From the sequence record NC_027994.1: a DNA stretch of 41,632 nt. One strand, written 5' to 3'. Source of the DNA: Escherichia phage K1H. The notes beneath the pieces were generated by a model that saw nothing but the letters and a program-made list of their open reading frames with translations, was not told the origin of the DNA and did no database searches. Below are positions 4,332 through 36,628 of the stretch, in pieces; position 1 is the stretch's first letter; each line of letters begins with the position of its first letter. Both the position numbers and the translations under genes were made by a program.

Positions 4332-4359
4332 AAAAGGCCCCTTTCGGGGCCTTATTTTT
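4332..4359. terminator. Bidirectional intrinsic terminator
   Basis: GGCCCC-TTTC-GGGGCC with T-run on + strand and A-run (T-run on - strand) on the other side. Confidence 0.6.
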
Positions 4360-4361
4360 CA

Positions 4362-4463
4362 TCAAAGTTCACCATTCCCGCTATCTGCGTCCTCGACCCC
4401 GCTAACAGCCCACACAAACAATCCTAAATTAACCAGTAACACAAATGAAATTGCTACCATCAT
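4362..4463 (-). CDS. Small hydrophobic peptide (33 aa, MMVAISFVLLVNLGLFVWAVSGVEDADSGNGEL)
   Basis: Internal ATG of track ORF 4362..4553; GGAGG Shine-Dalgarno 4-5 nt upstream; own promoter (TTGCAG-17-TACTAT) and terminator; single predicted TM helix. Confidence 0.4.
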   Translation of the reverse strand: MMVAISFVLLVNLGLFVWAVSGVEDADSGNGEL

Positions 4464-4489
4464 AACCACCTCCACTATACGTTTACTTA

Positions 4490-4518
4490 ATAGTACCCTA
4501 TTATGTTGGTGTCTGCAA
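4490..4518 (-). promoter_or_regulatory. Sigma70-like promoter, class 1 (TTGCAG-N17-TACTAT) with embedded dyad TAATAG-N4-CTATTA
   Basis: -35 at about 4513-4518 and -10 at about 4490-4495 (minus strand); spacer nearly identical to three other class-1 promoters. Confidence 0.5.
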
Positions 4519-4584: not shown

Positions 4585-4613
4585 TTGACTTTTCACCAAA
4601 AATGTGCTAAGCT
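4585..4613 (+). promoter_or_regulatory. Sigma70-like promoter (TTGACT-N17-TAAGCT with TGn extended -10)
   Basis: TTGACT 4585-4590; TG at -15/-14; weak -10 TAAGCT 4608-4613. Confidence 0.4.
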
Positions 4614-4792
4614 CCACCTGAGCTTGTGAAGTATGAACAAGCGACCGCGGCGCGGGCAGGTAACGGAGCGGGACGTAAGTCCTGAGTGTAGTTACGCTGA
4701 CGCGTTCGGAAGGGCCATACTCTATTGCTTGTGTAAAAAGTAACTGGTTTACTGAGATTACGCCGTTTCTATGTTTAAATGATAAGGACTAG

Positions 4793-4820
4793 CGCCCCGC
4801 TTTAAGGCGGGGCTTTACTT
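4793..4820 (+). terminator. Intrinsic terminator
   Basis: GC-rich stem CCCCGC/GCGGGG followed by CTTTACTT; the same hairpin sequence recurs inverted at about 34970. Confidence 0.5.
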
Positions 4821-4837
4821 ATCGAGAAAGGGGAAAC

Positions 4838-5224
4838 ATGAATCTTAAAGCAACTGTCGTAGCGGGAGCATGTTTCATCATCCTGGCTTACGCACACGGC
4901 ATCTACCAGTATCGCAGCGGCTGGAACGGAGGCCGGGCAAATCTCGTTTCGCAGCAACAGCAGAAAGCACAGGCTGAGTTAGCTAAGAAAACACAACGGC
5001 AGCAGCAGGATGAGTCGAAGGCCGCAGCCGCTGATAACGAAGGCAAGACGAAATCAGAGGTAATCACCCGTGAAGTCGTTAAGTACATTAAAACGCCTGG
5101 CCGCAGCGTGTGCACTTTTGACCCTGAGCGCGTGCAGCTCAAGTCCCGCGCCGTCGCAAACGCCAATTCCATCCCCGGATACGACGATGATGCAGCCGCC
5201 GTGCAAACTGGCACTGCCAAGTAA
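4838..5224 (+). CDS. Rz: i-spanin (Rz-like)
   Basis: 128 aa; N-terminal TM segment, Q/A/K-rich coiled-coil periplasmic domain; contains overlapping +1-frame lipoprotein ORF; AAAGGGG SD upstream. Confidence 0.75.
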   Translation: MNLKATVVAGACFIILAYAHGIYQYRSGWNGGRANLVSQQQQKAQAELAKKTQRQQQDESKAAAADNEGKTKSEVITREVVKYIKTPGRSVCTFDPERVQLKSRAVANANSIPGYDDDAAAVQTGTAK

Positions 5225-31811: not shown

Positions 31812-32027
31812 ATGCAACCATCTGAACTAGGCATCCGTGTAGAACAGCGCCGTAAAGAACTCGGCATTTCCCAACGCCGTCTGGCTGTCCTGGCCGGTGT
31901 TTCCCAGGGCGCGATTAACCAGCTGGCACTCGGTGTAACTAAGGACGTCCGCCCAGCGACGCTGTTTAAACTGGCGGAAGTGCTAGAGGTAGACGCCAAG
32001 TGGCTGGCGTTCGGTGAAGGGGCTTAA
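31812..32027 (+). CDS. XRE-family (Cro/CI-type) HTH transcriptional regulator
   Basis: 71 aa; RRKELGISQRRLAVLAGVSQGAINQ... typical HTH_XRE helix-turn-helix. Confidence 0.7.
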   Translation: MQPSELGIRVEQRRKELGISQRRLAVLAGVSQGAINQLALGVTKDVRPATLFKLAEVLEVDAKWLAFGEGA

Positions 32028-32044: not shown

Positions 32045-34312
32045 CTATTCTAAATCCTCCTCTGTCACTGTTAACAGTTCATTCGGTTCGTATATCGTCT
32101 TCGGAATCTTGTTATCAGTTATCCGGGTGTTCAGCCTGTAACGGCCAGGGATTATCTGATTGTTTTCGTCAGTCCCCGGAACAAGATACCCAGCCTCAAC
32201 CATTTTCTTAATCTTCCCGCGTTCTATGGCTTCTTTGGAGTTAAACGCCTTTGCATTGGGGTCAGACTGTGCGAGCTTATTAGCGGCGGCGACTGTGATG
32301 CCTTCGTTGCCGTTGTAGGTTCCTTCCGCCAGTTCAAACGCCGCCAGTATCGTGGCTTCTGAACTGTTGACGGCGTTCTCTATGGTTTTACGTACGTTTT
32401 CTTTACCTTCTTTCGTCAACCCTTCTTCCCGCTCTTTCTCCTCGTCAGTCTTGAACGGCTCGAAACCCCACGGCATTAACACAAGTGCCTTATGCGGCTC
32501 CGGCAGGTCGAGGTTTACGATTGTGCCGTATTCCTCCGTGCTACCGAGGAACTCAACCGCACGGTACTCTTTCGGCGGCGGCGCTTCACGGAACTGTACA
32601 GACTCCAGCACCATACCAACCGTCTTCTGTTGAGGCCCGTGCTTGAATTTCGAGTGGTATACATTTATCTGGCGGTCGGTAGCTCGTTCGATTGTCAGTT
32701 CCACGTCGACGCCAGCATACAGCGCCCCACTGCCACGGGCTTTCTTTCCGCCCTTCGGCGTATGGTGGACAACGCCTACCGCAGCTTTAGTCGCGTCACG
32801 TACTTCTTTCAGGATGGCGATAACCTTACCCATGCCGATTGCCGTTGATGAACTGTTCTCGTCGAACTTATCAATCGTCAGGGCTAGCGTCTGGTTGAGG
32901 GTGTCGAACGCAACCATGCCGATGGGTTCGTCACCCGCAGTTTCACGCATCAACTTAATCAGGCTTTTCAGTTTTCCGACTTCGCCCATGTCGATGACAT
33001 GTACATAATCTTTACCTTCCTCGCTATACTTAGCTGCGAGCGCATCGATACGGGTGCGTGTAGCTGCGCCGCCCTCACCGTCGATATAAAAATGGTGGCA
33101 ACGCTGCGTATCTGCCCCCGCAAACCGGTATCCGGCGGCGCTCAGGTACATCATCCCCAGCGTATAGAACGATTTGTACGTTCCGGATTCCCCGACAATA
33201 TCCCAGATACAATCTGACGGCATGTACCCTTCAACGACGAAATCCGCCTTTACCGGTTCCGGTAACTCGTCATCCTCTGAGTCCTCGTCATCTTCCAGGT
33301 CGTCGAGGCTGCATGAAACAGATTCACGTGCACCCCATCCGATGGCCTCTGCGACTTCACTGAACGGCAGCCCCGTCGCATCGCACGCATACTTCCACAC
33401 CTCTTTCGGTGACATGCCTTCGGTCGCCGTAATGTCAGTGTCGTGAATCATGGTTACGTTCGGCGCCTCATATCCCTCTCGCGGGAAGCACAGCAGGAAG
33501 TCATCCGGGCGCGGCGTCGGGTCGCTGTAGTTTTCTGCGTGTTCTGGCGTAGCTGGCATCTTAAGGCCTCGTGGCGTCATGATACCGCCATACTCGAACG
33601 CCAGTGCCTCGAACGCGTCGGTAAACGCGGTGCGCAGTTCTTCCGGTATCTGGTAATCCGATGCGCTGCTAACGTCAACGGCAGGGATGCCTTCCAGTAA
33701 CTCGTCCGGGTCAATCAGGTCGTTGCGGCGTGACCAGATAACGGTAGAGCCAACCGGAGGCAGGTACATCGGTTGCGAAAGAGTGAACCCGCTGCGGTCA
33801 GCACCCATGCTTTTGAAGAAGTGTTCCAGCAATCCATGGCGAACACGGATGATGTCACCACCTTCGACCGGACGGGCCAGCGGCATGACGACGCGAAAGC
33901 GCGGGGACTCGTCGGTATGTGATGCCGTGGTATAGATACACATGCCCCGGCGGCTGCGTTTAACTAAGCGCACCGCTTCCTGATACTCTTCTGGTGTTGC
34001 GCTGTCGAAGTCCAGATACGCCAGCGACGATTTGCTTACAGACGCGTCACAGCGATAGAAAAAGCCTTTACGCGCTTGCTTAAAGTCGCCGGTTTCCGGG
34101 TCTTTTACAGTGCTGTGCGTCGAGTCGCACGCGGCGGTGATATAACCGGGCGCGGTCTTCGGGTTAATTCCGTCACGGACAGCATCGAGTGGCTGGATTA
34201 ACTCTTTCAGGTCGTCCAGTGTTGCCGTGTGTGTGGTTCTGACGTTTATATCCTTTTTCTCTGCCCGCGCGTTGCGACGTGACCACGAGTAGGATAAAAT
34301 TACATCGGACAT
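32045..34312 (-). CDS. DNA primase/helicase-like replication protein
   Basis: 755 aa; central RecA/P-loop-like segment GESGTYKS and hhhhD motif VAFDTL; assignment by size and context. Confidence 0.65.
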   Translation of the reverse strand: MSDVILSYSWSRRNARAEKKDINVRTTHTATLDDLKELIQPLDAVRDGINPKTAPGYITAACDSTHSTVKDPETGDFKQARKGFFYRCDASVSKSSLAYLDFDSATPEEYQEAVRLVKRSRRGMCIYTTASHTDESPRFRVVMPLARPVEGGDIIRVRHGLLEHFFKSMGADRSGFTLSQPMYLPPVGSTVIWSRRNDLIDPDELLEGIPAVDVSSASDYQIPEELRTAFTDAFEALAFEYGGIMTPRGLKMPATPEHAENYSDPTPRPDDFLLCFPREGYEAPNVTMIHDTDITATEGMSPKEVWKYACDATGLPFSEVAEAIGWGARESVSCSLDDLEDDEDSEDDELPEPVKADFVVEGYMPSDCIWDIVGESGTYKSFYTLGMMYLSAAGYRFAGADTQRCHHFYIDGEGGAATRTRIDALAAKYSEEGKDYVHVIDMGEVGKLKSLIKLMRETAGDEPIGMVAFDTLNQTLALTIDKFDENSSSTAIGMGKVIAILKEVRDATKAAVGVVHHTPKGGKKARGSGALYAGVDVELTIERATDRQINVYHSKFKHGPQQKTVGMVLESVQFREAPPPKEYRAVEFLGSTEEYGTIVNLDLPEPHKALVLMPWGFEPFKTDEEKEREEGLTKEGKENVRKTIENAVNSSEATILAAFELAEGTYNGNEGITVAAANKLAQSDPNAKAFNSKEAIERGKIKKMVEAGYLVPGTDENNQIIPGRYRLNTRITDNKIPKTIYEPNELLTVTEEDLE

Positions 34313-34370
34313 GTTGTATTTCCTTCAGCAAGTAATTTGGCCTCGGCGTTCACCGCGTCGGGGCTTTCTT

Positions 34371-34691
34371 TTATTCCAGGTCGTGGGAGATATTACCCTC
34401 GGGCACCAACACTTTTCCAATACTTCTCGCTTTCTCTGTAATAGGCGTCGCTCTTGTTGCCCGATAAAACTTTCCTTTATTAAGAATCTCACCATGTCGC
34501 TCGAGCACATCTAAAGCATGTTTGATCGGGTTTACACCGTAATTATCCAACCGGTATCTCCGAAGCCCGTCTACCGTAAAAGCGCCGTTCGCTTCGGTCA
34601 GTCTGCGTGCACACATTAATATGTGTTTCTGGAATTTAGTTAGCATCTTTAACGTTCTCCTTAATCCACGCCTCCACAGTAGCGCGGTCAA
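34371..34691 (-). CDS. Hypothetical protein
   Basis: 106-aa track ORF overlapping upstream gene by 56 nt; true start probably an internal ATG. Confidence 0.4.
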   Translation of the reverse strand: MTALLWRRGLRRTLKMLTKFQKHILMCARRLTEANGAFTVDGLRRYRLDNYGVNPIKHALDVLERHGEILNKGKFYRATRATPITEKARSIGKVLVPEGNISHDLE

Positions 34692-34815
34692 AGGTACCTG
34701 GCTGACGGTAGCCGTTAATAACCCGGCAACACTCAGGGAACTTACCCGACCGCAGCCAGCGATTAAGCGTCATAGGAGAAACTCCGATTAAGTCTGCTAC
34801 TTCTTTCTGTGTCAT
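34636..34815 (-). CDS. AlpA/excisionase-family HTH DNA-binding protein
   Basis: 59 aa from ATG 34815 (AGAGGG SD); MTQKEVADLIGVSPMTLNRWLRSGKFP... matches AlpA-like pattern. Confidence 0.55.
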   Translation of the reverse strand: MTQKEVADLIGVSPMTLNRWLRSGKFPECCRVINGYRQPGTFDRATVEAWIKENVKDAN

Positions 34816-34844
34816 TTTACACGCCCTCTTTATCAAGTGAAACA

Positions 34845-34873
34845 ACTATAACACCCACAATAGCCAAACACAA
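34845..34873 (-). promoter_or_regulatory. Putative minus-strand promoter (TTGTGT-N17-TATAGT)
   Basis: TATAGT -10 as in class-2 promoters; 23 nt upstream of AlpA-like ATG. Confidence 0.35.
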
Positions 34874-34877
34874 CCTA

Positions 34878-34905
34878 TTGACAAAATAAAATGTAGCTGT
34901 AAAAT
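34878..34905 (+). promoter_or_regulatory. Strong sigma70-like promoter (TTGACA-N16-TAAAAT)
   Basis: Consensus -35, near-consensus -10; faces a 390-nt region lacking any ATG. Confidence 0.55.
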
Positions 34906-35236
34906 CAATGTATCGAAGGACCTTAATTCAGAATTACTTAGAAACATCATTCTTAAGTCTCGGGTACTTAAAGCCCCGCCCTAAAGCGGGGCGCTAAACA
35001 GTACTCTTGGTAACGTTAGTATCTAAGTTTCCTCAAAGTAACAGCAAGTAGCAAGAAAGCCTCCGTCTATTTAAATTTTACCCTCCTTCATAAGCTACTG
35101 ATAATTAAAAGTTTCTATAGTTGCCGTAAGCGAGGTAGAGAGTACTTCACTCCGCTGGGGTGGGCTAACGCCCACCCACTGCGTTGCGTACTCCTTTAAG
35201 AAACGAAAGAATCACAACGGCAACGTAACTATTCTC

Positions 35237-35267
35237 TTGCACACCCCAACATAATAGGATACTATTC
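35237..35267 (+). promoter_or_regulatory. Sigma70-like promoter, class 1 (TTGCAC-N17-TACTAT) with dyad TAATAG-GATA-CTATTC
   Basis: -35 35237-35242, -10 35260-35265; about 30 nt upstream of first early-right gene. Confidence 0.55.
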
Positions 35268-35299
35268 ACTTATCGGAACGAGACAGAGGAGTGAGGGTT

Positions 35300-35497
35300 A
35301 TGTTTAAGAATGGTCAGTTGGTTAAATGCGCCGACGGTGAACACGGCATAATTGAATTAAAATCTGCTTTATTTCCAGGAAAGTACGTAGTTACCGTGCA
35401 AAATGTGAGAGGAGTAAATTCACAAATATACGTAGCGGAGGAGAACTTAAAACTCATCGGCAACAATTTTAAATTTAAAGGGGGGAGGGTGAAGTGA
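35300..35497 (+). CDS. Hypothetical early protein
   Basis: 65 aa from ATG 35300 (GAGGAG SD); track start GTG 35291. Confidence 0.5.
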   Translation: MFKNGQLVKCADGEHGIIELKSALFPGKYVVTVQNVRGVNSQIYVAEENLKLIGNNFKFKGGRVK

Positions 35498-35706
35498 TGG
35501 AAGAATTATTTGAAGAACTGAAACATCATGATTTCGAGGAAATATATTTCGTAGCTGAACGCTACGAGGTGCATTTATCGGACGTGATTACAATTATAAC
35601 GATGGATAGCCAGCAAATGCTAAATAGCTTACGAGCAATACGAGCAATACGAACGGCATCGAATCATGATGCTTGTGCCGACGACGCTGAGGGAGGTTGC
35701 CGTTAA
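35494..35706 (+). CDS. Hypothetical early protein
   Basis: 70 aa, ATGA overlap with upstream gene. Confidence 0.5.
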   Translation: MMEELFEELKHHDFEEIYFVAERYEVHLSDVITIITMDSQQMLNSLRAIRAIRTASNHDACADDAEGGCR

Positions 35707-35909
35707 TGCGAATCCGTATAACTGACCGCAGGCTTATCCGTATAACTGACCGCAGGCTTATCCGTATAACTGACCGCAGGCTTATAGATTTCGGTATCTC
35801 GGTAGGTGATGTTTTTCCGGCGTTCAGCATCAACCATTATGGTTTTATGATTGAGTACAAAGGGTCGTTATTGTTCGTGTATCGGGATGAATGTGAGGTT
35901 CTGGTATGA
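35706..35909 (+). CDS. Small protein with triplicated RLIRITDR peptide repeat
   Basis: 67 aa from ATG 35706 (TAATG overlap, GGAGG SD 10 nt upstream); N-terminus encoded by three perfect 24-bp tandem repeats. Confidence 0.45.
   Translation: MRIRITDRRLIRITDRRLIRITDRRLIDFGISVGDVFPAFSINHYGFMIEYKGSLLFVYRDECEVLV
35712..35785. repeat. Tandem direct repeat, 3 perfect copies of 24 bp (ATCCGTATAACTGACCGCAGGCTT)
   Basis: Read directly from sequence: copies at 35712-35735, 35736-35759, 35760-35783, followed by a 2-bp partial copy. Confidence 0.9.
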
Positions 35910-36061
35910 GAGAAGCATTTGAACGGTGGGCTGTGGTCGAGGGTCTGCCGGTTAACAAGGGTTCAAAGAAAGAGTACCTGAACGTTAAGACGCGTCTCGC
36001 GTGGCGGGCGTGGAAAGCTGGTGTGCAATCCTTGATTGAAAGAGGTGTGAGGTATGGGTGA
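35906..36061 (+). CDS. Hypothetical small protein (51 aa)
   Basis: ATGA overlap with upstream and downstream genes; below ORF-track size cutoff. Confidence 0.35.
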   Translation: MREAFERWAVVEGLPVNKGSKKEYLNVKTRLAWRAWKAGVQSLIERGVRYG

Positions 36062-36254
36062 GTGGATTAAGTGTAGTGAGATGCTGCCGGGTAATGGGTA
36101 TACGGATAAAGAGTTCCTGGTGTATGAAACGTTAAATAACGCAGTTCAGCACGATTATTACATAGTTCCTGATGACGGGAGAAAGCCTTTCTGGAATCAC
36201 TACGATAAGTACGTGACGCACTGGATGCCGTTACCCGAGCCGCCAGAAGTGTGA
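36054..36254 (+). CDS. Hypothetical protein
   Basis: 66 aa, translationally coupled. Confidence 0.5.
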   Translation: MGEWIKCSEMLPGNGYTDKEFLVYETLNNAVQHDYYIVPDDGRKPFWNHYDKYVTHWMPLPEPPEV

Positions 36255-36388
36255 TGTTCAATAGTTTGGGATTTTACTGAGTGACTTACGCTGCTACACA
36301 GCAGCGTACAACTTTAACTTAGTGTCGTCAAAAGGCGACACTTTCATCAAACGCAACAATCGAAGCGACTATTGCAGGAGATGCAACA

Positions 36389-36562
36389 ATGATTACTAAA
36401 GAACAGGCTGAACGACTAATCACGTTAATCGACACGATGGTTGATGCGAAAACCGATTTAGCAACGGCAACAGAGGAATCCGCTACCTGGTCGCTTGAAG
36501 AAAGAGAAGCAGAAGCGGAAAGGGAGTTACTGGCGTTCATCGACTCTATAACACACCAATAA
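36389..36562 (+). CDS. Hypothetical small protein (57 aa)
   Basis: AGGAG SD 8 nt upstream of ATG; acidic helical protein; antisense track ORF 36328..36540 judged spurious. Confidence 0.4.
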   Translation: MITKEQAERLITLIDTMVDAKTDLATATEESATWSLEEREAEAERELLAFIDSITHQ

Positions 36563-36569
36563 AATTTAC

Positions 36570-36600
36570 TTGCACACTAAGATAGAATAGGCTACTATTC
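36570..36600 (+). promoter_or_regulatory. Sigma70-like promoter, class 1 (TTGCAC-N17-TACTAT) with dyad GAATAG-GCTA-CTATTC
   Basis: -35 36570-36575, -10 36593-36598; perfect 6-bp half-sites. Confidence 0.55.
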
Positions 36601-36628
36601 ATTTACACAAGCGAGAGGGGAGACAGAG

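Follow-up and report, generated by a model that had tools for sequence, protein, structure and literature searches.

We analyzed the complete genome of Escherichia phage K1H (NC_027994.1; 41,632 nucleotides (nt), hereafter the window), which is of the Kagunavirus type (Guernseyvirinae), and focused on positions 34878-35299, part of the genome's one large divergent intergenic region. According to our best reading, this stretch would be the rightward half of a divergent early control region with two layers: a near-consensus promoter, PR1, followed by a putative structured and untranslated RNA, and a second promoter, PR2, which bears a palindromic operator (AATAG-N4-CTATT) and lies before the first rightward gene. 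What the sequences show are the elements themselves, their conservation, the covariation, and the paralogy; from these we infer the firing of PR1, the ends of its RNA, and an effect of this RNA on termination. The original prediction for the region, a selected noncoding transcript of the plus strand, received independent comparative support from PR1, its stems, hairpin 2, the strand bias of folding, and a paralogous unit, whereas the part of its argument that relied on missing ATG codons failed. The features are listed in Table 1.

PR1 and its predicted structured leader

The comparative set comprised 47 distinct viral, metagenomic, and GenBank sequences, with an invariant 19-mer (35211-35229) as the anchor, which was matched in 32 viral and 26 metagenome stretches. 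The promoter that had been claimed, TTGACA-N16-TAAAAT, was found exactly at 34878-34905 and agreed with the consensus at 11 of 12 positions. Three sites of this quality occur genome-wide, PR1 included, compared with 0.3 expected from block shuffles, and promoter-like sites were mildly enriched in the region (7 versus 3.9 ± 2.0). The PR1 28-mer was identical in all 10 distinct relatives carrying the window's type of left spacer module (L-w), whereas 10 of the following 28 nt varied (p ~4e-4 for this contrast by a hypergeometric estimate). Back to back with PR1 lies PL, which we infer to be the leftward promoter of the helix-turn-helix (HTH) gene; 4 bp separate the two −35 hexamers, PL also has no operator, and the corresponding alignment columns in other module types read TTGCTT-17-TATACT or TTGATT-17-TATACT.

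RNA made from PR1 would be untranslated, and its first ~100 nt would fold as two stem-loops (SL), SL-0 and SL-1, followed by a linker, hairpin 2, and a C-rich tract. The stems of SL-0 were invariant among relatives, with variation confined to the loop. Both hairpins named in the original prediction were present, GCCCCGC-CCTAAA-GCGGGGC (hairpin 1) at 34973-34992, within SL-1, and GGGGTGGGC-TAAC-GCCCACCC (hairpin 2) at 35157-35177. In variants L045 and L053, ~15 changes left the shape of SL-1 intact; all of them fell within SL-1, the flanks being identical. In the model-guided alignment of SL-1, 99% of the cells paired, and changes on both sides were found at 8 pairs (shuffles, 2.9) and in 15 cells (shuffles, 3.3; 0/500). 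This analysis also contained a conserved G·U pair, which corresponds to A·C on the opposite strand. The folding z-score of SL-1 was −4.1 on the plus strand and −2.6 on the minus strand, the plus strand was favored in 4/4 SL-1 variants, and z-scores were more negative on the plus strand in 7/7 module types. For hairpin 2, none of the 17 stem positions varied among variants of the window's right module type (type A), whereas three of the four loop positions did (estimated p ~0.003). The structure prediction and covariation check in relatives, which had been proposed for this region, showed that the stems are kept by compensatory and wobble-compatible changes in a plus-strand-specific manner.

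In all 47 sequences, 381-418 nt separate the HTH start codon from the anchor, despite left modules that have no sequence relationship to one another. The spacer sequences formed ten clusters and consisted of two exchangeable halves, of which nearly all left-right combinations occur. The left modules were L-w, L-f (fPoEco01-like), L-j (Jersey-like), and the L015 type, and the right modules were A (this window), B, and C. Modules join at two short boxes that they share, GTCTATT and AAGnnACTGAT; no islands other than TCTATT and AAGnnACTGAT are common to all module types, and these two also occur in the paralogous unit (4700-4790). In the predicted folds of every left module type, long stem-loops directly follow a TTGAC(A/T) promoter, and the Jersey-type left module forms one near-continuous hairpin of ~115 nt. 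At the place of hairpin 2, right modules B and C carry hairpins unrelated in sequence, GGUGCC-UUCG-GGCACC in B and GGGCAGGC-UUAAG-GCCUGCCC followed by the U tract UUUAGUU in C (Jersey-type); among variants of the latter, a C-G pair replaced by U-A and a G·U pair were found. Right module A showed a median identity of 95.7% among 21 contigs, compared with 53-65% for the flanking genes and the left module, the 95.7% being inflated by grouping by module type, and it was kept even with a different downstream gene and Shine-Dalgarno (SD) sequence.

Two repeat features of the spacer were also observed. The hypervariable triplet at 35051-35054 lies between two CAAG repeats and reads TAG, TGG, TGA, TCA, TCG, CGG, or TGAT in nine relatives, with 13 invariant bases upstream and at least 16 downstream. 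In type-B right modules (L003, L004, L036, and others), a (CTCA)n repeat stands just 5′ of the GGUGCC-UUCG-GGCACC hairpin, ~60-85 nt upstream of the anchor, with 7 units in SCS44 (L003) and ~4 in the other type-B modules.

After hairpin 2, the C/G ratio reached 2.45 over 35171-35248, the most C-rich and G-poor stretch of the predicted PR1 transcript and a value that exceeds the 99th percentile of sense-strand windows (1.85). The C/G maximum had a similar position across all module types. Such a C-rich, G-poor tract would fit a Rho-sensitive untranslated leader, but it is also conserved DNA beside PR2, so its composition may have another cause. In an intrinsic-terminator scan of both strands over 34000-36500, hairpins 1 and 2 were not called, their tails being GCUAAACA and ACUGCGUU without a U tract. 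A search of Rfam 15 gave no match at the gathering threshold in the window or in nine related loci (permissive best E=0.07, sub-threshold), and in the literature on this subfamily we found no paper on transcripts, noncoding RNA, or an origin.

Several further elements were rejected. Substitutions break the pairing of a small hairpin at 35009-35032, and a helix closing the 5′ and 3′ sides (GAAGGA : UCCGUC) showed only partial covariation (GC:4, AU:2, AC:3). A long-range helix, GUUGCCGU (35120) : ACGGCAAC (35217), formed in isolated folds of all three right-module types and was nevertheless dropped because its 5′ half is deleted in L045 and L053 and because the octamer is the genome's commonest. 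This top 8-mer, GTTGCCGT / ACGGCAAC (for example at 35120 on the plus strand and 35217 on the minus strand), has 18 copies compared with ~1.3 expected for a random octamer and is tied by TGCCGTTG; bias in codons or dinucleotides may be the cause, or the 8-mer may be a recognition site. Pairing of UCACUCC (35147) or of (CUCA)n with the SD of the first gene gave duplex energies within the shuffle range (fraction 0.04-0.57), and an anti-SD leader was dropped because the energies were no better than those of shuffles and because the module is kept with a different SD. A minus-strand small RNA (sRNA), 35104 to 35075, ending at hairpin 1 was rejected, its promoter being unconserved beyond the closest relatives, and the likeness of the TCTATT box to boxA (GCUCUUUA), with 4-6 of 8 positions matching, was judged too weak.

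The lack of start codons turned out to be uninformative. The plus strand of 34911-35299 does contain no ATG, as described (CAT occurs four times), and GTG, reported once, is present twice (35160 and 35291). The ~six ATG said to be expected are obtained (6.1) from single-base composition only; dinucleotide-preserving shuffles gave 1.70 ± 1.15 with P(0)=0.15, a low expectation because TG is rare in the spacer. The 392-nt ATG-free gap is the sixth-longest such run in the window, five being longer. Nor is the gap a conserved trait, since relatives hold 0-5 ATG over the equivalent span, and the count fell below the shuffle expectation in 1/10 module types only (L007, P=0.01). ATG depletion was rejected as a sign of selection because it is nonsignificant against dinucleotide shuffles and unconserved in relatives. 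The stated absence of an open reading frame (ORF) was borne out, as none of ≥35 amino acids (aa) exists. Spacer ORFs of 26-34 aa on either strand were not conserved in frame and length among relatives and module types, and a small-ORF gene in the spacer was rejected, one recurrent ORF being broken by a 10-nt insertion in L025.

Table 1. Predicted and annotated features of the window (MFE, minimum free energy; positions of the first and last nt)
Feature	Position	Strand	Description
PL	34845-34873	−	TTGTGT-17-TATAGT, extended −10 (TGn); putative leftward promoter for the HTH gene, read from sequence
PR1	34878-34905	+	TTGACA-16-TAAAAT, near-consensus sigma-70 promoter; predicted start ~34912; without AATAG-N4-CTATT operator
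SL-0	34936-34958	+	ACUUAGAA / UUCUUAAGU, loop ACAUCA; in MFE and centroid folds
SL-1	34962-35006	+	two-tier, extended hairpin 1: outer GGGUACU[UA] / [UA]..AGUACUC, inner GCCCCGC / GCGGGGC (34973-34992)
Pyrimidine-rich linker	35007-35096	+	box GUCUAUU 35066-35072; hypervariable triplet 35051-35054; right edge is the module-exchange junction
Right module, type A	35097-35283	+	ACUGAUAAUUAAAAGUUUCUAUAG box, hairpin 2, C-rich tract, promoter-unique block, PR2, first transcribed bases (predicted)
Hairpin 2	35157-35177	+	GGGGUGGGC-UAAC-GCCCACCC; possible extension to 35139-35194 by GAGUAC / GUACUC
Upstream block	35200-35236	+	GAAACGAAAGAATCACAACGGCAACGTAACTATTCTC; just upstream of PR2 −35, unique to this promoter copy
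PR2	35237-35268	+	TTGCAC-17-TACTAT; predicted start ~35272, then SD GGAG, ATG 35300
Xre-type HTH_3 protein	31812-32027	+	71 aa; Pfam HTH_3 E=2e-12; PHROG transcriptional repressor families
Helicase-primase	32045-34312	−	755 aa; PHROG 3228; leftward of the HTH gene, past one unknown ORF
HTH_17 / excisionase-like protein	34636-34815	−	small DNA-binding protein, 59 aa, first leftward gene; Pfam HTH_17 E=3e-9; PHROG 66
Locus 2 promoter	4585-4613	+	TTGACT-17-TAAGCT, TGn extended −10; read from sequence
Locus 2 RNA	4620-4733	+	SL-I and long SL-II; covariance model R2, 77 bits, E=3e-18
Locus 2 intrinsic terminator	4794-4823	+	GCCCCGC-UUUAAG-GCGGGGC then UUUACUUAUC; called by terminator scan (4794-4813)

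PR2, its operator, and a candidate regulator

The region had been described as a single 390-nt untranslated region served by one promoter. It is not simply that, because PR2, which had been overlooked, sits inside it together with a palindromic operator. PR2 (hexamers and spacing, 35237-35265) lies 35 nt upstream of the ATG of the first rightward gene, and the 14-bp palindrome AATAGGATACTATT (35253-35266) overlaps its −10 element. A 34-nt element spanning PR2 (35236-35269) recurs in the genome. The 18-nt motif ATAATAGGnTACTATTCA had 7 genome matches compared with 0.05 expected, and AATAG-N4-CTATT occurred at promoters in seven perfect copies and one with a single mismatch, compared with ~1 expected. 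These operator copies lie at 4489, 13028, 26023, 29577, 31723, 31768, 35253, and 36586; those with flanks read or a gene start listed are 24-57 nt upstream of the start codon, and two coincide with the genome's other two 11/12 promoters. PR2 was 93% conserved into Salmonella Jerseyvirus. The first rightward gene is thus predicted from the sequence to be under its own conserved, operator-bearing promoter, and the set of at least eight operator-marked promoters looks like a single-regulator regulon.

A motif of this kind has been published. PHIRE analyses of fBC-Eco01 and Golestan listed "phage promoters" in seven copies with the consensus tgAATAGTa-ccTATTat-T, already a predicted promoter in that work (PMC9825357, PMC7203180), which is the reverse complement of the PR2/operator motif. 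Both papers attribute the motif to a phage RNA polymerase and do not note its palindromy, the adjacent Xre-type gene, PR1, or the structured RNAs (PMC9825357, PMC7203180). Among the proteins scanned, in a scan short of the full proteome, there was no RNA polymerase gene. This phage group is not known to encode one.

The gene for the Xre-type protein runs opposite to the leftward replication block in which it lies and is located between divergent operator copies (31723 and 31768). The Xre-type protein is the obvious candidate regulator of PR2 and the other operator promoters, and it is the protein most likely to act on the operator set. The block upstream of PR2 formed invariant alignment columns across Kagunavirus and Jerseyvirus and may be an activator site and/or a Rho-loading tract. 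In L025 and L052, a 10-bp insertion, TTTCAATGAA, which amounts to one helical turn, parts the invariant block from the −35 element of PR2; that this insertion is tolerated suggests that the block is a face-of-helix protein-binding site and not part of the core promoter.

Other arrangements around operator-type promoters were observed. In Salmonella phage Kenya-K2 (L005, Jerseyvirus), PR2 is followed, 80-230 nt past the anchor, by a further leader of ~130 nt with a GC hairpin, a second operator-type promoter, and the first gene; tandems of promoter, hairpin, and promoter thus recur. On the minus strand of the window, a mini-ORF (within 4362-4518, ATG 4462) encodes a hydrophobic peptide of ~33 aa (MMVAISFVLLVNLGLFVWAV...) and has its own operator-type promoter (4518-4489); it is wedged between the bidirectional terminator of a Hoc-like gene (4334-4353) and the promoter of locus 2. 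In L022, L025, L027, L035, and others, a 12-bp tandem repeat, TGGTGTAACAGG, with 2 to 4.8 copies lies ~1.0-1.25 kb past the anchor and abuts an operator-type promoter equivalent to 36570-36601 of the window, in which the tandem-repeat scan found no such repeat.

With regard to the surroundings, 34600-35500 is 95.6-95.8% identical to K1ind2, K1ind3, and K1G. The HTH gene was classed as early in an RNA-seq study of a Kagunavirus (PMC12645636). Rightward from the ATG at 35300, small ORFs of unknown function lead to holin and endolysin genes, and the structural genes follow beyond the record start. No homologues were found in Escherichia coli chromosomes, plasmids, or GTDB genomes, mislabeled phage contigs excepted. 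An E. coli "plasmid" of 44,086 bp from blood (PLSDB CP088689.1), which matched the spacer at 94.7%, is evidently the genome of a Kagunavirus.

A paralogous unit before the capsid genes

A second unit, locus 2, repeats the predicted design of the spacer: a promoter, a structured RNA, the shared boxes, a GC hairpin, and co-oriented genes. Its promoter carries the palindrome AAGCTC-N5-GAGCTT over −10 and +1, with CTATTCGAATAG upstream, and is of the same type as in L-f modules at the spacer position in other phages. The RNA belongs to the covarying L-f family, which other Kagunaviruses carry at the spacer position, and the linker boxes between RNA and terminator align with 35060-35120. The terminator ends 14 nt before the ATG at 4838, which starts an Rz-like spanin gene, followed by genes for the scaffold and the major head protein (PHROGs). 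An inverted copy of this terminator (4794-4813) makes up the inner hairpin of SL-1. Both units are oriented like their downstream genes, and in the three L-f phages with sufficient reach of the locus (L019, L022, and L028) the RNA was found at both loci.

The L-f module folds as a short stem-loop and a 68-nt irregular hairpin in four sequence subtypes. Among 29 distinct sequences of the family, 94.8% of the cells paired, and both-side changes were found in 78 cells compared with 21 ± 3.4 in shuffles. The covariation score was 0.257 compared with 0.102 (0/500), slid controls reached ≤0.035, and 5/5 apical pairs covaried. In an unguided alignment subset, 154/154 cells of the well-aligned helices paired, with U-A, C-G, and A-U occurring at one pair. 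The family also has invariant G·U pairs and changes from U-A to U-G or from G-C to G-U, which pair on the plus strand only.

The 5′ motif of the L-f RNA was found in 42 viral stretches, all but three of them on contigs of 40.9-45.1 kb, including Jerseyvirus, and the locus 2 RNA (subtype d) was near-identical on Kagunavirus and Jerseyvirus contigs in IMG/VR (model scores 69.8-82.2 bits). In the bacterial genomes searched, the 5′ motif was absent, bar one short contig that is probably phage. The phage RNA motif is present on the GTDB contig JAEWLW010000073.1 (L071; 6 kb, binned as a metagenome-assembled genome of Bacillota), which probably comes from a phage and was mis-binned.

Possible role of the leader and known systems

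Our preferred reading, which we hold tentatively, is that the PR1 RNA is a cis-acting leader controlling elongation or termination, either put-like or as an attenuator. An influence of the RNA on the passage of polymerase through a hairpin is preferred because the terminator of locus 2 abuts the ribosome-binding site of the next gene. PR1, which has no operator, would be put to use by the host's RNA polymerase as soon as the DNA enters the cell. Its RNA would act in cis, on its own polymerase or its own 3′ end, by attenuation or put-like antitermination, possibly with processing. The leader would set how much unregulated transcription passes the hairpins, the Rho-prone tract, and the terminators into the right-hand operon, which runs from the small early genes through holin and endolysin to the packaging genes. 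PR1 would feed this operon via the leader, and PR2, switched by a phage regulator, most likely the Xre-type protein (31812), would add an operator-controlled input.

Several points weigh against a cis-acting leader. Because hairpins 1 and 2 have no U tract, there is no obvious termination point before PR2 for the RNA to regulate, and the leader may be dispensable because PR2 alone could express the operon. The inverted terminator copy in SL-1 has its U-tract side facing the minus strand, which could hint at a leftward role. The alignments behind the covariation counts were fitted to the model, a procedure that favors structure, and the window's module type has just two independent SL-1 variants. 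Model R2 matched only 4620-4733 in the window, the spacer's own module having no detectable homology to the L-f family, so the equivalence of the two rests on position and architecture. The Kagunavirus RNA-seq study resolves genes only (PMC12645636).

The imperfect two-tier hairpins could instead be RNase III-type sites or stem-loops protecting the 5′ and 3′ sides that process or stabilize the early-right mRNA with no effect on elongation, an explanation we consider rather unlikely. SL-1 and the extended hairpin 2 are hairpins of 45-56 nt with internal loops, the Jersey-type hairpin is ~115 nt long, neither window hairpin has a U tract, and the L-f RNA opens with a stem-loop at about +2, the classic position of a 5′ stabilizer, all of which agree with such a role. 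However, the strong terminator right before the gene at 4585-4838 and a second promoter downstream of the processing sites would be left unexplained.

It is less probable that the stretch is one or more stand-alone sRNA genes, making a discrete RNA of ~90-270 nt from PR1 that acts in trans or titrates a protein. The layout of promoter, structured RNA, and hairpin fits this explanation; the Jersey-type hairpin 2 has a usable U tract, variant L025 converts hairpin 1 into GCGGGGCUUUAAAAU, and locus 2 is a complete cassette of promoter, RNA, and terminator of ~200 nt. However, variability is greatest in the single-stranded parts, which would have to hold a seed, and no significant complementarity to other phage sites or to the SD of the first gene was found. 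Moreover, both units always face downstream genes, no terminator closes the unit in the spacer, and no Rfam family matched.

The palindromes may also act as DNA, that is, as protein sites, cruciforms, or recombination remains in a spacer that merely insulates divergent promoters. The region is a mosaic junction of module combinations, hairpins are inherently symmetrical on both strands, the L-f palindrome over −10 and +1 must work as DNA, and the block upstream of PR2 tolerates a 10-bp insertion (L025). Nevertheless, an action as DNA is improbable, as the conserved and newly arisen G·U pairs are A·C mismatches on the other strand, the folding z-scores are strand-asymmetric in every module type, type B has a UUCG tetraloop, and the compensatory changes reach irregular multi-helix shapes for which dimeric DNA-binding sites have no need.

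A replication origin or primer RNA beside the helicase-primase operon, activated by transcription from PR1, had been offered as an option and is very improbable. The region lies between the replication genes and the right operon, close to the cumulative GC-skew minimum (~35,000-35,300), it has an AT-rich box (35097-35120), and among the phage's proteins are a polymerase of the PolA type and a primase-helicase. However, the region contains no iterons or direct-repeat family and no DnaA box with ≤1 mismatch, no AT-rich box is common to all variants (that of the window is absent from type-B right modules), and the paralogous unit lies among capsid genes. An independent skew signal is also lacking, because the skew flips with every change of gene direction and thus carries no replication signal. 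A perfect 24-bp repeat, ATCCGTATAACTGACCGCAGGCTT, in 3.1 copies (35712-35785) was rejected as iterons, as it lies in frame in a small ORF (ATG 35707) and relatives have 1-3 copies or none; it encodes RITDRRLI three times, and a 9-bp repeat, TACGAGCAA, in 2.6 copies occurs at 35630-35652. That the stretch is an ordinary spacer with a meaningless promoter-like site, hairpins, and ATG gap is hardly credible, for although the ATG gap is nonsignificant and the enrichment of promoter-like sites is mild, PR1 does not vary among relatives, the stems show covariation, the spacer keeps its length, and the genome has a paralogous unit.

The gene regulation of Kagunavirus and Jerseyvirus is essentially undescribed, and these phages are a common therapeutic and engineering chassis (PMC11990801). 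New with respect to the literature found are PR1, the reading of the operator as a palindrome with an Xre-type candidate, the modular spacer, and the two structured RNAs. The regulatory map gained comprises two early promoters that lack the operator, a set of eight palindromic operator sites with a candidate Xre-type regulator, and two promoter-proximal structured RNAs that are supported by covariation and match no Rfam family. If the RNAs control termination, this would explain how a phage without an N- or Q-like antiterminator among the proteins scanned reads through its many hairpins, and the RNAs would be compact, portable parts with which expression in engineered phages could be tuned. 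Should their role be limited to processing or stability, they would still mark sites that payload insertions must avoid.

Among known systems, P4 CI RNA and P1/P7 C4 RNA are alike in that a structured RNA is embedded in a phage operon's untranslated leader, close to a replication module of the primase-helicase type. However, the C4 family of Rfam gave no match here, no complementary target boxes were found downstream, and the P4 CI and C4 systems serve lysogenic immunity, whereas no lysogeny genes are reported for this phage family (PMC9825357). The T7 early leader (promoters A1-A3, a ~400-nt leader, and the RNase III site R0.3) shares with our stretch the virulence of the phage, tandem strong host-type promoters, imperfect hairpins with internal loops, and a length of several hundred nt before the first gene. 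In contrast, the T7 leader lies at the genome end and is coupled to DNA entry, whereas here PR2 has an operator and the modules are swapped among relatives.

In the late leader of lambda (PR′-qut-6S RNA-tR′), a constitutive sigma-70 promoter makes an untranslated RNA of ~200 nt that meets a terminator before the lysis, packaging, and head genes. Locus 2 (4585-4838) resembles this layout closely and the PR1 region loosely, since the hairpin of the latter has no U tract and is followed by a second promoter. Compared with lambda, the conserved feature here is the RNA secondary structure, not a DNA element bound by Q or a pause signal, and no N- or Q-like antiterminator was found among the proteins scanned.

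The putL and putR sites of HK022 are alike in having two copies per genome that differ mainly by compensatory changes, adjacent stem-loops after a strong host-type promoter, and terminators downstream in the same unit. With respect to layout only, SL-0 and SL-1 after PR1, and SL-I and SL-II after the 4585 promoter with the terminator at 4794-4813, have a put-like architecture. The likeness is one of architecture; the stem-loops of our two units exceed those of put in length (23+45 nt and 22+68 nt), the loci precede the early and capsid operons instead of following PL and PR, and the phage is virulent. We consider it possible, although doubtful, that the Guernseyvirinae govern read-through of their operons with a family of promoter-proximal, RNA-only, self-acting antiterminators, functional put analogues unrelated in sequence, at two loci (ahead of the early-right and of the spanin-scaffold-capsid operon) and as interchangeable modules passed among phages. 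If true, virulent phages would thereby have their first example of RNA-only antitermination, in a genus already used for therapy and engineering.

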